Positions 37,820-42,785 of a stretch of DNA of 64,000 nucleotides are shown one piece after another. This DNA comes from Hormiphora californensis (lineage: Eukaryota; Animalia; Ctenophora). Where the stretch lies: NCBI GenBank assembly GCA_020137815.1, contig CM035351.1, positions 1,736,001 to 1,800,000 of the forward strand, written 5' to 3'. The stretch's first letter is position 1. Every line of letters begins with the position of its first letter. Made by a program: the position numbers and the translations under genes. The notes under the pieces were generated by a model. It did no database searches. It was not told the DNA's origin and saw only the letters and a list, made by a program, of their open reading frames with translations.

Positions 37820-39003
37820 ATGGTGTTATCGTTTGTTGACTACCTCGAATCTCCGCCTGTCTTTGAAAGTGTAGTAGTGGGAAATACAGCCTGTGATCTG
37901 GACTCTGTTGTGTGCAGTCTTGCTCGAGCTTACCATCTCACATGTCAAGGTAGTAATTTGATCCGTGTAGTGGCTAAACAATGTCAAGGTGTAGTAATGT
38001 GATCCAAGGTTGTTGAAGTGCGATCCGTGATGTATATCGAAACAGAAGTTGGCTCGTTCATTATGAAACTCTATAAGTGCCACTTCCTTACCTCTCCCCC
38101 TGTATTTCAGGTATCCCTAGCACCGCTATACTTCCCATCAAGTCTGCCGACCTGCCCCTCCGAACTGAGGTCATCTACATGTTGCAGCTCCTCAAGATCT
38201 CACCCTCTAAACTTCATTTCACAGACTCTGTCCTCCAGTTTCCTGACAATGTGACCCTTCACCTTGTGGACCATAATATATACGCACCCGGTACCATCCC
38301 CATTCTTACATCCTACACGGTGGACTCTGTTGTTGATCACCATGTAGACGAGGGTGGCCCTGCAAACACTAAAACTATCAAAATGGTCGGGTCTTGTGCA
38401 ACACTCGTTACCGAGATCATGACAAGTGATGCCAGCTTCACCATTCCTTTAGATCTCAAAACAGCCCTTGCTGGTACAATTCTACTTGACACGATAAACC
38501 TTGATTTGCAACAAGGTAGGACTACCCGGCTGGACTTCGACATGTTCCAGAAAGTTAGAACCCCAAGAGAGAATCTTTTTAAGGATCTCATTGCGGCTAA
38601 AACAGATATTTCGTCCCTGAATGTGTTTGATCTTCTCCGCCGTGACTTCAAGATGTTTACATCACGAGAGGGTAGTGTTGTTTGTATAGCCTCCATAACC
38701 GGTGCAAATTGGGAACAATACTCCTCACTTCCTGAGCTTCAATCCCTAACTGACAAGTTTCTTACCGAGTTTGGTGTTAGTGTCCTAGTGGTAATGTTGG
38801 CATATCATGAAACGAATGGGGTCTTCTCTCGGTATCTAGTGCTAGGGAAAGGGAGCAGTGTCATTGATGTTGAAGAGTTGAGAGATGAGCTAGATTTGAA
38901 GCTGATTAGGACACCAGATAGTGATGTGAGGGTGTTCAGCCAGAGAAACTTGAAGGCGTCCAGAAAAGTTGTCATGCCATTAATTAAAGCTCAGCTAACA
39001 TGA
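37820..39003 (+). CDS. PRUNE1: Exopolyphosphatase PRUNE-like (DHH family); intron ~37950-38110
   Basis: VVGNTACDLDSVV, LRTEV, LVDHN, VVDHH, VGSCATLV, TILLDT, LRRDFK, ASRKVVMP. Confidence 0.9.
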
Positions 39004-39184
39004 TCTTGAAATGTTACTCTAGATGTTAGATGTTGCAAATTATTTTGTGTTGTTGTTTTTTTGTACTTTTTAGTTTTCTACATTTCAATCCACATATTTT
39101 AGTTTATAGCTAAATATTCAAATTGTTTTTTATCTTATACATCTGTGATCTGATTAATAATAAACCCAAAATGTCTAGGCCAGG

Positions 39185-40672
39185 ATGAAGTCAATTCTCG
39201 TGTTAGCCCTGCTTCACCTAACCCTCGGTAAGTTTTTTAATACATCACCGGATATGTATTATTTGCTTCCCTATACACTTTATAATGTACTTTTTTATCC
39301 TAGATTATTCATTATAGTTCTTCCGCTTCTTATTTCAACTTCTATTAGGACATATTTTAATCAACATCTCTACTCCAGGTTGCTCCAACTTTGATGTAAA
39401 GAGTTACACGACAACAAACATTGCTCTAGCAACAGAGACAGCTGTGCTAGTGGAATTCACATCTGACTGTGGGGACGCTAAACTATCTGCTGTTGTTGGT
39501 ATGTTGAACTCAATGAGTTTACTTCTTGACTTTCTCTATCCTATAGCCTAAAGTAAACAAGGTATACATGGAATCCTAATTGAGTCTAGCTTTGCTTCCC
39601 CAACTTTGTGTATAGTACGTGTGATCATGACAGGCAGGGGTATGTGTGTGAAGCAGGAGTATTGAGACAATATTCTCCTCCCTTTATTATACACCTCATT
39701 GTACACGGCAGCTCCTAAAGCCTGGTCTGTGTTTATCTCTCCATCTTACTTCCGCCCACCATTGTGTAGCAACACACGAATGGTGTTGAGTTGTAGACGT
39801 GTCAGCTGTTCTGTGACCACTTGAAAGTTGAAACACGACCCTAGCTGGGGTATAATGGGGTGTTGAACATCAATTAGCTTCAACTTCTCATGATAAGATT
39901 ATGGCGACAATCTCCAACCTATTTAAAAACCGTACCATTGGCGACTAACCAGACCCTTATTTGGCAATAACTAACTAACCTCCCTCCCCCACCACCCTTC
40001 TACAGACGGTGAAGTACTGCCAGTGTACAGTGCAGGAGAGAAGAGCATGGTAACGGTTGTTAAGGAACATTCCCAACTCCCTGCCAACACATACACTGTG
40101 AGTAGCTAATCATTCATTGTCTTTATTCTCTGTTCATATTCTCTCACCTCCTATCCAAGAAACTCCTTTCTCCCTCTCTCTCTCAGGTTGATCTCTATGA
40201 TGAGGCCGGTATTGTTGCCTTCAAGAACTTTGCTAAGGAGGGTGCCGGTGATGCCCCTAAAGCTATCCACTCCATCTCTGTTGTGCATCCTGTAAGTAAT
40301 ATAACACGTGACGTATACATGTGACGTCATCGCGCTGCTCCTGCTCCGCTGCTGCTGCGGGGTCTACACGACACGTCAAGTCGGAGAGAGGGATTTGGAC
40401 TGCGCGCAACTACTGTCAGCACTTCTCACGCGTGTCACTGAGCCGCGCACACCCTCTGACGCGTACCCAGAGCGTCATCAAACACCTCTCTCCAGTGACA
40501 GGTGTGCAGTGTGTGATTGTTTGTTTGCAGAACACAGTAACCAATCCTTCCTTTCTTTGTACAGGGTGTTTCAAAGGAAGGACTCCCCATCCAGTCTGAA
40601 TTCATTGTCATGGTCGTCGCCCTGCTTGTGTGGTGGGGAGCCAACAGTATCAAGGCCAAGATCTCGGAGTAA
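39185..40672 (+). CDS. SSR4: Translocon-associated protein delta (TRAP-delta); five exons
   Basis: Signal peptide, CSNFDVKSYTTTNIALATETAVLVEFTSDC, TYTVDLYDE, ISVVHPG...QSEFIVMVVALLVWWGANSIKAKISE*. Confidence 0.85.
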
Positions 40673-41001
40673 AGAAGGAAAGCACATTCCTAATTTCTTC
40701 TACTACGTTTTATCACATTTCTTGTTTCGAACTGTACAGAGGTTTGACCAAGGGGGAGACCTTTAGAACACATAACACAGACGTGAGACAGAGGTCTATT
40801 TGTTGGAACTGTTGTGAGTCATGTGAGATTGAATTTTTAATTCCCATCACTCCTATAACACTCTTGTTTTACATCCCCTCTTGTTATCTCAAGTTCGAGA
40901 AACCCAACCCCCCTCTCCTATTGCTTGTTATGTTCCCTCACTTCTCAGTTCTCCCCCAGTCCCACTGCTAACCCTCCACCATTTCCCTTGTAGCACTCAC
41001 C

Positions 41002-41802
41002 ATGTTGTGGAAGCTTCTCCTCATTGCCTCCCTCTGTCTCTCCCCGGTCCTGGTTAGGGCCCAGGAGGAGGACCAGATTATGGATGGAGATGAGGATTCT
41101 TTGGATGATGGAGCCCCTCTAGATGACGGAGCCCCTCTTGATGACGGAGAACCAATTGTACATGAGGAGACAGCTAACGCTGAGGAAGAAGATTTCGTAA
41201 TCAAGGCCTCCCCCGATGCTAAGGTGTTCTATGCTTTCCCTAAGATGAGTGACGAGACTAGGTTCCCTGGTGGTAAGATGGTCAAGGCTCTTATCGGATT
41301 CCAGAATAACGGACACAAGAGCTTCATTGTGGATAATGTCGAGGCTGGCTTCCGATACCCCATGGACTACAACTATGTCATCCAGAACTTCACCAGTTTC
41401 AGATACAACAGAGAGGTTGCCCCAGGTGCCACTCAGACCTTCCTCTACATGTTTGTGCCCAGTGAGCAGCTGGCTGGAGGCAGCAGGACCTTCTCTCTGG
41501 TCATGTCCCTGAACTACAAGGATGACGAGGGTAACCTCTTCACTGACTCCCCCTTCAATGAGACCGTGTCTGTTCATGAGGTTGATGAGGGATTCGACAC
41601 TGAGATCTTCTTCATGTACATCCTGCTTGCTGCATTTTTTGGTATCATGCTCTTTGGTGCCCAGTACCTGCTGTCTAGTGCTTTTGGTGGTCGTAAATCC
41701 GCTAGGAAGGCGATCGAGACGGGAACAAGTGGAGGAATCGACTACGACTACATCCCCCGGGAGCACCTCAAGAAAACTGCCAAGGCCGGAAAACGAGACT
41801 AA
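41002..41802 (+). CDS. SSR1: Translocon-associated protein alpha (TRAP-alpha); intronless CDS
   Basis: Signal peptide, acidic stretch, ASPDA, LIGFQN, FRYPMDYNYVIQNFT, FNETV, TM segment, IETGTS..DYDYIP. Confidence 0.95.
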   Translation: MLWKLLLIASLCLSPVLVRAQEEDQIMDGDEDSLDDGAPLDDGAPLDDGEPIVHEETANAEEEDFVIKASPDAKVFYAFPKMSDETRFPGGKMVKALIGFQNNGHKSFIVDNVEAGFRYPMDYNYVIQNFTSFRYNREVAPGATQTFLYMFVPSEQLAGGSRTFSLVMSLNYKDDEGNLFTDSPFNETVSVHEVDEGFDTEIFFMYILLAAFFGIMLFGAQYLLSSAFGGRKSARKAIETGTSGGIDYDYIPREHLKKTAKAGKRD

Positions 41803-42265
41803 TTCCTCCCTAGATTTTTACCCCACAACACCAAACCGTTCACAACAACATGAAACATCCCTGAAGAAGAAGAAGGAGGCCCCATCTTGTGTCTGTGTCC
41901 TGTATTGCAGTCAGTGGATGTTCGATCTAGATCCTGCATTTCAGTGTGATAGACTATTGGGACTCCTCTCTCTCTCTCTATCATCCCTAGGTTACCATGG
42001 TAACAAAATCCCCCTTTTTATAGTCTCGGGAAGAGTATTTAACATCCTGTATTTATAAGAAATTCGGACCCCCACTCGTGTTTATCACGTGGTGTGTGTT
42101 GTATATTGATGTTTTTGATGTGTTAAGGTTTACATTTTACTTCACACGATAACCGATCTATATTACTACCCTTCCCTCTACTACTCCTCCGCCCTCCCTC
42201 TATTACTCCCCCGCCCTCCCTCTCTTTCCCAACTAACCCACCTCTCTCCGTGTAGCTAGAGAAAC

Positions 42266-42785
42266 ATGCCCACTCCCGCTTCATCTACCAGTGTCGGTGC
42301 CGGAGGTCGTCAGGCTGCCAGTGGACCCAGCAAGGGAGGCTCCGTAGTCCGACGAGGGTACGTGACACATTCACTTTCCAAATTGACCTCTTCTAACTGA
42401 CACCGCCTAACTTATCACATCCCCTTCCGTTAACTCACTTCCCCTATCTAACACCCTCCCTCTCCCCTTTAGAAAGAGCGGCGGTTCCAGCAGTACAGTG
42501 TCCCGATCCAAGCCCAGCGGTGGCGGTAATGCCGGTATGTGGAGGTTCTACACTGAGGATTCTCCCGGACTCCAAGTGTAAGTGCTTTAGAAAACATTGG
42601 TCCATGTTTTATTTTCATGAGTTAGGTGTAGTTACTAGTTCTCCCAGACAAATTTCCCCAGCACAACTTTATTCCTAACCCTCACTCCCTCCTTCAGTGG
42701 CCCCGTCCCTGTCCTGGTTATGAGCCTGATTTTCATCGCCTCCGTCTTCATGCTGCACATCTGGGGAAAGTGGACCAGGTCATGA
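42266..42785 (+). CDS. SEC61B: Protein transport protein Sec61 subunit beta; three exons
   Basis: [11 protein letters not shown]...[43 protein letters not shown]. Confidence 0.97.

Follow-up and report, generated by a model that had tools for sequence, protein, structure and literature searches.

A cluster of three Sec61-TRAP translocon genes in the ctenophore Hormiphora californensis: a likely operon resolved by spliced-leader trans-splicing

Introduction

The reasons for which operons arise in animals and are maintained are still to be explained, and most such operons show no functional link among their genes. The earlier note on the DNA examined here had remarked that most animal operons do not group subunits of one complex, in agreement with nematodes, where most operons have no clear functional relationship among their genes (PMC1657053), though two-gene coherent precedents exist, namely the myosin light and heavy chain operon of Ciona and pdi-1/cyn-9 of C. 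elegans (for the latter, PMC1657053). We have analyzed a window of 64,000 nucleotides from Hormiphora californensis (contig CM035351.1, positions 1,736,001 to 1,800,000) in which genes for three subunits of one membrane complex follow each other, and we ask whether they are transcribed together and resolved by spliced-leader (SL) trans-splicing. If true, SL-resolved polycistronic transcription would extend to Ctenophora, and the idea that operons serve co-regulation could be tested cleanly on a conserved case in which three non-homologous subunits belong to the same complex. Such an operon would also be a bacteria-like grouping of the genes of one ER protein-import machine, uncommon in animals.

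Gene content of the cluster

Four genes, PRUNE, SSR4, SSR1 and SEC61B, are consecutive on the plus strand, and all the models give clean translations. The first (exons 37820-37949 and 38111-39003, 340 aa) is, judging by its predicted product, a PRUNE/PPX1-type DHH phosphoesterase (exopolyphosphatase) with both the DHH motifs and the DHHA2 domain (Pfam DHHA2, E 1.7e-12; yeast exopolyphosphatase 2qb6, E 6e-21, with the DHH motif aligned). The other three are, by protein similarity, homologues of subunits of the Sec61-TRAP translocon. SSR4 (TRAP-delta; five coding exons, 39185-39227, 39379-39498, 40006-40097, 40187-40291 and 40565-40672, 155 aa) gave the TRAP-delta Pfam match in two of the four exon frames tested; SSR1 (TRAP-alpha; a single coding exon, 41002-41802, 266 aa) matched Pfam TRAP_alpha (PF03896, E 3.7e-20) and the TRAP-alpha of PDB (E 3e-45); and SEC61B (Sec61-beta; three coding exons, 42266-42357, 42473-42577 and 42698-42785, 94 aa) matched Pfam Sec61_beta in both exon frames tested. 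Human homologues of all three are present in PDB entry 8b6l; of the same complex, TRAP-beta, TRAP-gamma, Sec61-alpha and Sec61-gamma are encoded outside the Hormiphora unit.

That these genes are consecutive, co-oriented and code for non-homologous translocon subunits had been claimed before, and the gene models together with the Pfam and structural homologues bear it out. The human genes for TRAP-alpha, TRAP-delta and Sec61-beta are not known to be linked. In Hormiphora the stop-to-ATG gaps, earlier put at about 180, 330 and 460 bp, were recomputed as 181 nt (PRUNE-SSR4), 329 nt (SSR4-SSR1) and 463 nt (SSR1-SEC61B). The unit ends with the plus-strand SEC61B 3' UTR (42786-42928), with poly(A) after 42928 in a loose end of run X2, and the 3' neighbour is on the minus strand (kinase exons from 44063).

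Spliced leader at the acceptor sites

The AG-to-ATG distances are 6, 6, 8 and 10 nt for PRUNE, SSR4, SSR1 and SEC61B, as in the 6-10 nt reported earlier, and the branch sites then proposed for two of the genes were located, with CTAAC 21 nt before the AG of SSR1 and 18 nt before that of SEC61B. The SSR4 acceptor has only 40% pyrimidines. An AG near an ATG is by itself weak evidence for a trans-splicing acceptor, because, counting both strands, 709 of the window's 2027 ATGs have a YAG 0-12 nt upstream; 76 of those 709 also have a tract of at least 70% pyrimidines, and five further have CTRAC.

We have examined RNA contigs from 4 of 24 listed runs (X1, X2, X3 and X6) over 37120-43300, a span that takes in the cluster but not its BTB, DEAD-box and kinase neighbours. 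Contigs start with a non-genomic leader at AG 39177-39178 of SSR4 (three of the four runs, X1, X2 and X6, from three studies), 40992-40993 of SSR1 (one of four, X1, with 10 nt of leader; an X2 contig begins at 40992) and 42254-42255 of SEC61B (three of four, X1, X3 and X6, from two studies). The same leader 3' end, of which 10-24 nt were read, is found on all three genes; the leader matches the 3' 26 nt of the SL published for H. californensis (PMC8527503), and its end, AATTTGAG, is absent from the plus strand of the window. SL trans-splicing at SSR4, SSR1 and SEC61B is confirmed by RNA, at the very acceptors that had been named from the sequence. The situation that would have spoken against it, cis-spliced 5' UTR exons and no SL, was also looked for: the SL is present, and among the RNA joints listed no cis-spliced 5' UTR exon is joined to any acceptor. 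All six cis-introns appear as joints (SSR4 four of four, SEC61B two of two). A 12-nt leader-like word at 37137 was rejected as a cis-spliced leader exon, having neither a GAG end nor a donor.

As in the published case of trans-splicing in this species (PMC8527503), with which the 3' part of the leader is identical, the AG lies a few bases before the ATG. That paper describes leaders; their role in separating clustered genes is not part of it, and neither "operon" nor "polycistron" occurs in its main text. The presence of the SL is not proof of an operon, since in the Iso-Seq data of Hormiphora at least 56% of the reads carry it (PMC8527503), monocistronic mRNAs included.

Gaps between the cistrons

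The PRUNE 3' UTR and gap (39004-39178, plus strand like the features that follow) has 175 nt, 24% GC and no CpG, and its sole AATAAA (39159-39164) sits 12 nt before the SL acceptor AG at 39177-39178; the lack of CpG and the position of the AATAAA leave little room for an SSR4 promoter. The SSR4 3' UTR (40673-40858) has poly(A) after 40858 in a loose end of X2, and the SSR4 contigs of X1, X3 and X6 end at 40803-40841. There follows intercistronic region 2 (40859-40993), of 135 nt and 73% pyrimidine, with one CpG, CTAAC at 40968-40972 and the acceptor AG at 40992-40993. The SSR1 3' UTR (41803-42075) has an approximate 3' end, the contigs stopping at 42066 (X1), 42073 (X3), 42075 (X2) and 42144 (X6), and no poly(A) was seen there in the RNA contigs of the four runs. 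A conserved block inside it (41915-41944) has no supported structure (-1.5 kcal/mol, two-sided change in 1 of 14 pairs), and an Rfam scan of 33000-48000 gave two matches, both under the gathering score. Intercistronic region 3 (42076-42255) has about 110-180 nt and 70% pyrimidine, with CTAAC at 42233-42237 and the acceptor AG at 42254-42255. No donor-like motif was found in regions 2 and 3.

From mRNA 3' end to the next acceptor there are thus 135 nt (40858 to 40993) and about 110-180 nt (42144 or 42075 to 42255). The short distance from poly(A) to acceptor between co-oriented genes, an SL on the downstream genes and a poly(A) 3' end of their own (SSR4 at 40858, SEC61B at 42928, both in X2), three of the marks by which SL operons are recognized, are found here. 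The distances exceed those of Ciona (about 0-1 nt) and Oikopleura (about 30 nt), the cluster having 135-180 nt, and resemble those of operons in C. elegans (about 100 bp) and chaetognaths (cut-off below 250 bp).

The same data could come from three co-regulated genes with separate nearby promoters, the short outrons of which are removed by SL trans-splicing, that is, from a conserved cluster without an operon. Ctenophore mRNAs commonly carry the SL, in tunicates, flatworms, chaetognaths and Hydra a single SL goes to monocistronic and polycistronic genes alike, and no contig bridging a gap is among those listed for Hormiphora in the four runs. However, the promoters would have to fit into 135-180 nt that are mostly pyrimidine tract, with one CpG in region 2 and none in the PRUNE-SSR4 gap, or else lie within the upstream gene, and a contig from another ctenophore runs unbroken over both gaps (see below). 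We consider this explanation quite improbable.

Linkage in other ctenophores

Checking synteny in other ctenophores, as had been proposed, showed that linkage is kept in Mnemiopsis (SSR1-SEC61B) and in Bolinopsis (all three genes). The locus tags of Mnemiopsis SSR1 and SEC61B are adjacent (ACHWQZ_G011270 and ACHWQZ_G011269), and the SSR4/SSR1/SEC61B set of Bolinopsis has near-consecutive accessions (XP_063674423, 425 and 426) on one 23-Mb record, neighbouring accession numbers indicating neighbourhood and not gene order. The Hormiphora proteins are 67% (SSR4, to Bolinopsis XP_063674425.1), 78% (SSR1) and 86-88% (SEC61B) identical, the last two to both Mnemiopsis and Bolinopsis. When relatives of SSR4 were sought with a single exon frame, Mnemiopsis SSR4 was not found, 0 of 80 candidates scoring.

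Of 13 loci from a metagenome scan, L003 alone had SSR4 or SEC61B, most of the others being mRNA-length contigs that cannot reveal neighbours. L003 (3126 nt, with a poly(A) end) carries an intron-free SSR4, SSR1 and an intron-free SEC61B in the order found in Hormiphora, including both gaps and the untrimmed acceptors. Its SSR1 and SEC61B proteins are identical to those of Bolinopsis, and its SSR4, which differs at 3 of 158 residues from Bolinopsis XP_063674425.1, matches TRAP-delta of PDB. It is continuous over the three cistrons, but is an assembled contig, in which the gaps could be bridged by overlapping transcripts or by traces of DNA, as no intron lies between the last exon of SSR4 and the first of SEC61B. 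SL-like leaders open SSR1 contigs of other ctenophores: AATTTGAG is the end of the leader in L001 (with the Mnemiopsis protein), L002 and L007, and L004 and L005 have a variant. The long 3' part of L004, from the same scan, was left out, as it looks chimeric with GC-rich coding sequence. The SSR1 tree, for the most part without resolution, was left aside in placing the species.

Chance adjacency in a compact genome, without functional meaning, is largely refuted by this conserved linkage, which persists between species with SSR4 only 67% identical, and we regard it as extremely improbable. Unrelated BTB and DEAD-box genes nearby, also co-oriented, are likewise tightly spaced (about 620 nt), as chance would allow; three consecutive co-oriented genes from the translocon set would be expected about 1e-6 times per genome, a post hoc figure with assumed numbers (12 genes of 16,000). 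The BTB to DEAD-box pair was rejected as a control operon, as a duplicate of the region upstream of BTB lies in its gap.

Transcription of the unit and candidate promoters

Given adjacent genes, the same leader and conservation in other comb jellies, the cluster is likely co-transcribed, and SSR4-SSR1-SEC61B would be an SL-resolved operon, with one polycistronic pre-mRNA probably starting upstream of PRUNE. RNA polymerase II would transcribe the whole unit from a CpG-rich stretch there, the cis-introns would be spliced out, each cistron would be ended by 3' cleavage and polyadenylation, and SL trans-splicing at the next branch point, pyrimidine tract and AG would cap the downstream RNA, yielding separate capped mRNAs per gene. 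A single promoter is what we infer, and the cluster may persist because co-expression of translocon subunits is selected for.

PRUNE is probably the first cistron. Its predicted acceptor (AG at 37812-37813, plus strand, 6 nt before the ATG) comes from sequence only and has no RNA cover in any of the four runs, and PRUNE itself is covered by one 149-nt piece in one of the four; since it was the downstream genes that led to these runs, this does not count as a sign of low expression. For a PRUNE homologue (P0062) and for an SSR1 homologue (P0006) alike, the record gives a contig of 324,731 nt. The CpG-rich stretch before PRUNE (37130-37420), a candidate shared promoter, is probably where the polycistronic pre-mRNA would start; 37120-37400 has 24 CpG, with an observed/expected ratio of 1.32 versus 0.57 in the window, and is the second-highest of nine CpG peaks.

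SSR4 intron 4 (40292-40564, plus strand), a candidate internal promoter or enhancer, has 19 CpG in 273 nt and is the sole CpG peak within the cluster. It contains six TGACG (CRE half-site), versus 1.2 +/- 1.1 in shuffles and reached in 5 of 2000, for a motif picked after viewing the sequence of the intron. It could be an internal promoter, and the unit a hybrid operon, the upstream promoter driving PRUNE-SSR4 and reading on, and a second promoter in the intron (with CREB3/ATF-type factors) driving SSR1-SEC61B through an outron trans-spliced at the SSR1 acceptor. Hybrid operons are known in C. elegans (PMC7725455), and in Drosophila CrebA acts through CRE/UPRE-like motifs to activate secretory genes, Sec61-beta among them (PMC3003312). 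Against this, besides the post hoc choice of motif, the element could be an enhancer of the upstream promoter, intronic enhancers being described in Mnemiopsis (PMC12221973), and the middle of the intron is covered by no RNA contig among the pieces listed. We hold this arrangement to be unlikely.

Comparison with known operons

Among known systems the likely unit comes close to the single-SL operons of Ciona, Oikopleura, Schistosoma, chaetognaths and Hydra (PMC7986045, PMC2760879, PMC12460157, PMC3273482), which are likewise formed by co-oriented close genes and have one leader for first and downstream genes; according to the same set of papers, housekeeping genes, such as those for ribosomal and proteasome subunits, are overrepresented in the operons of chaetognaths. 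The SL2 and hybrid operons of C. elegans (PMC1657053, PMC7725455) likewise have about 100 nt from poly(A) site to acceptor and may have internal promoters, but SL2 operons use a dedicated downstream leader, whereas none was seen here, SSR4, SSR1 and SEC61B sharing one leader end over the 10-24 nt read. The mechanism is known and the gene content is unusual: three of the four genes encode parts of a single membrane complex, and the nearest precedent found is the two-gene myosin operon of Ciona. That C. elegans sec-61.B and trap-3 share a YAC name was not confirmed.

No description of a translocon operon was found in the literature searched (Derelle 2010 and Moroz 2014 were outside its scope). 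For Ctenophora, this literature describes leaders and shows no operon. Moroz 2014 reportedly mentions operon-like clusters in Pleurobrachia, and if so the novelty is lower. A wider reading, tentative and rather doubtful, is that ctenophores independently built bacteria-style same-complex operons cut by SL trans-splicing, the translocon operon being kept across the phylum to match subunit supply and being one of a genome-wide undescribed class. Public RNA data show expression of this short cluster, which is also found in Mnemiopsis, a laboratory species.

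Gene models and acceptor signals

The placement of four genes on the forward strand by the earlier note was borne out by our analysis. Exons translated by coordinates gave a PRUNE-type DHH protein of 340 aa (37820-39003), TRAP-delta of 155 aa (SSR4, 39185-40672), TRAP-alpha of 266 aa in a single exon (SSR1, 41002-41802) and Sec61-beta of 94 aa (SEC61B, 42266-42785), and their names are supported by Pfam and PDB matches. Human homologues of the last three proteins are found together in PDB 8b6l, a Sec61-TRAP translocon entry. The stop-to-ATG gaps are 181, 329 and 463 nt, in agreement with the 180, 330 and 460 bp estimated before. 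AG acceptors had been claimed for all four genes. A YAG no more than 12 nt upstream occurs at 709 of the 2027 ATGs of the window, whereas the full signal of branch point, pyrimidine tract and AG is found at just 5, so that, judged on sequence, the motif argues strongly for the acceptors of SSR1 and SEC61B but carries little weight at SSR4 and PRUNE.

Spliced leader and 3' ends in RNA

Assembled contigs from four of 24 listed public RNA runs (X1, X2, X3 and X6, belonging to three studies) were aligned to 37120-43300. In the four runs an identical non-genomic 5' piece was found, extending up to CACTACTTTAAACAAATTAATTTG and followed by the shared AG, which corresponds to the 3' end of the Hormiphora californensis spliced leader (SL) printed in the accessible text of PMC8527503; AATTTGAG was absent from the forward strand of the window. 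Both this leader and the protein identities mark the window as ctenophore DNA. Among the listed contig ends, the leader was joined at 39177 (SSR4) in X1, X2 and X6, at 42254 (SEC61B) in X1, X3 and X6 and at 40992 (SSR1) in X1 only, with 10 nt of leader behind an adapter, 40992 being also the start of one X2 contig. SL trans-splicing, as the earlier note had proposed, is thus seen at three of its acceptors, SSR4 included. Each of the six cis-introns in SSR4 and SEC61B showed up as a joint, and none of the RNA joints listed for these runs and this region led from an upstream exon to any acceptor.

Poly(A) was found after 40858 (SSR4) and 42928 (SEC61B) in X2, and SSR1 contigs from three runs stopped at 42066-42075, while the fourth run gave an end at 42144, which places the 3' ends 135 nt (SSR4-SSR1) and about 110-180 nt (SSR1-SEC61B) before the next acceptor. 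These two gaps are 70-73% pyrimidine and hold no donor-like motif. Among the pieces listed for the four runs over 37120-43300 no contig bridged any gap, and PRUNE was covered by a single 149-nt piece in one run.

A probable single transcript and its alternatives

Short spacing, leaders and separate 3' ends, all of them operon criteria, are found at this locus, which behaves like a single-leader operon. We consider it reasonably probable that the polycistronic unit proposed before is one Pol II transcript resolved to capped mRNAs: Pol II would transcribe the unit as a single RNA, 3' end formation would cut off each cistron and SL trans-splicing at the next acceptor would then yield the capped downstream mRNA. 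Transcription probably starts at the CpG-rich stretch at about 37130-37420, so PRUNE is somewhat likely to be the first cistron, also because the 175-nt PRUNE-SSR4 gap is CpG-free and has its sole AATAAA 12 nt before the acceptor AG.

The main rival, a hybrid operon with a promoter in SSR4 intron 4, seems unlikely to us; it is raised by the only CpG peak within the cluster and by six CRE half-sites there, a number reached in 5 of 2000 shuffles with the motif chosen post hoc. According to the accessible text of PMC3003312, a CRE-type motif is the route by which Drosophila CrebA drives Sec61-beta. This CpG-rich intron (40292-40564, six TGACG) has a full TGACGTCA at 40322 and is a candidate CREB3/ATF-type element from its sequence. 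Separate promoters with short outrons are conceivable since at least 56% of Hormiphora reads bear the SL, and we rate them as distinctly improbable.

The cluster would represent a known mechanism with unusual gene content. Moroz 2014 is said to mention operon-like clusters in Pleurobrachia. Operons resolved by an SL have been described in nematodes, tunicates, flatworms, chaetognaths and Hydra, according to the accessible parts of PMC7986045, PMC12460157, PMC2760879 and PMC3273482. No description of a ctenophore operon or translocon-gene cluster like this one appeared in titles and abstract openings among the matches listed, and the text or supplements of Derelle 2010 and Moroz 2014 may bear on this claim. 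The word operon has zero occurrences in the accessible main text of PMC8527503 and PMC12221973, and the gene names of the cluster had no match in three supplementary files of PMC12460157, among which the operon table is perhaps not included.

Conservation in other ctenophores

The synteny check suggested earlier was favourable. In Mnemiopsis, SSR1 (ACHWQZ_G011270) and SEC61B (ACHWQZ_G011269) are on one 20.9-Mb record, and in Bolinopsis SSR1, SSR4 and SEC61B (XP_063674423, 425 and 426) share a 23.0-Mb record, such numbers indicating neighbourhood and not gene order. No Mnemiopsis SSR4 was retrieved in the homologue search. Of 13 metagenome loci, one (L003) carries SSR4, SSR1 and SEC61B, arranged as in the window. 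Its SSR4 and SEC61B are without introns, poly(A) stands at its end and both gaps are retained with their CTAAC-pyrimidine-AG signals, so it resembles a tricistronic precursor from which the introns have been spliced out, although the assembly may instead join overlapping RNAs or DNA traces, and L004 from the same scan looks chimeric. At the protein level L003 matches Bolinopsis exactly in SSR1 and SEC61B, and 3 of the 158 SSR4 residues are different. Chance adjacency is very hard to credit, given an expectation of about 1e-6 for the translocon set (assuming 12 genes among 16,000) and the conserved linkage. The boldest reading, a phylum-wide class of same-complex operons in ctenophores, we hold as doubtful.

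The records of a PRUNE homologue (P0062, 41% identity) and of an SSR1 homologue (P0006, 73%) both give a contig of 324,731 nt, probably the same one, which suggests PRUNE-SSR1 linkage, though not adjacency; none of the remaining PRUNE homologues found had a matching contig with an SSR1 homologue.

The SSR1 contigs L001, L002 and L007 start with leaders ending in AATTTGAG, and L004 and L005 with a variant leader. The 3' part of the L004 contig (1400-2385) shifts to GC-rich coding sequence, presumably dynein light chain-like, and is probably an assembly chimera with sequence from another organism. A block of about 30 nt in the SSR1 3' UTR (window 41915-41944, TGGATGTT...TTTCAG) is conserved in six aligned ctenophore sequences (window, L001, L002, L003, L006 and L007) and weaker in L005. 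No secondary structure of this block was supported; it is possibly a protein-binding or localisation element.

Neighbouring features

On the reverse strand, a single-exon BTB gene (33162-34841) has CTAAC and, 4 nt ahead of its ATG, an AG; a DEAD-box helicase gene (32544 downwards) comes about 620 nt after it. Within this gap is a diverged copy of the BTB upstream/start region (32754-32828 versus 34929-35003, 83%), and the pair is a candidate for a second operon or a duplicated promoter. A perfect inverted repeat in a DEAD-box gene intron (29828-31168, 664-nt arms, 13-nt spacer) is either a foldback element or an assembly artefact. Between the BTB gene and PRUNE lies a near-perfect tandem duplication (35105-37105) with a period of 1005 nt and 3 differences over about 1 kb, recent or an assembly artefact. 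At the end of both copies is a fragment similar to the C-terminal part of a 385-aa reverse-strand ORF (48749-49906). This ORF, with no Pfam match, probably derives from a mobile element, and beside it lies a CpG-rich stretch (49938-51051) that contains CCCTAA-like units as well as an inverted repeat of 42 nt. A multi-exon protein kinase gene with Pkinase matches (44063-47118, reverse strand), which by its motifs we take to be Wee1-like, converges on the SEC61B 3' end.
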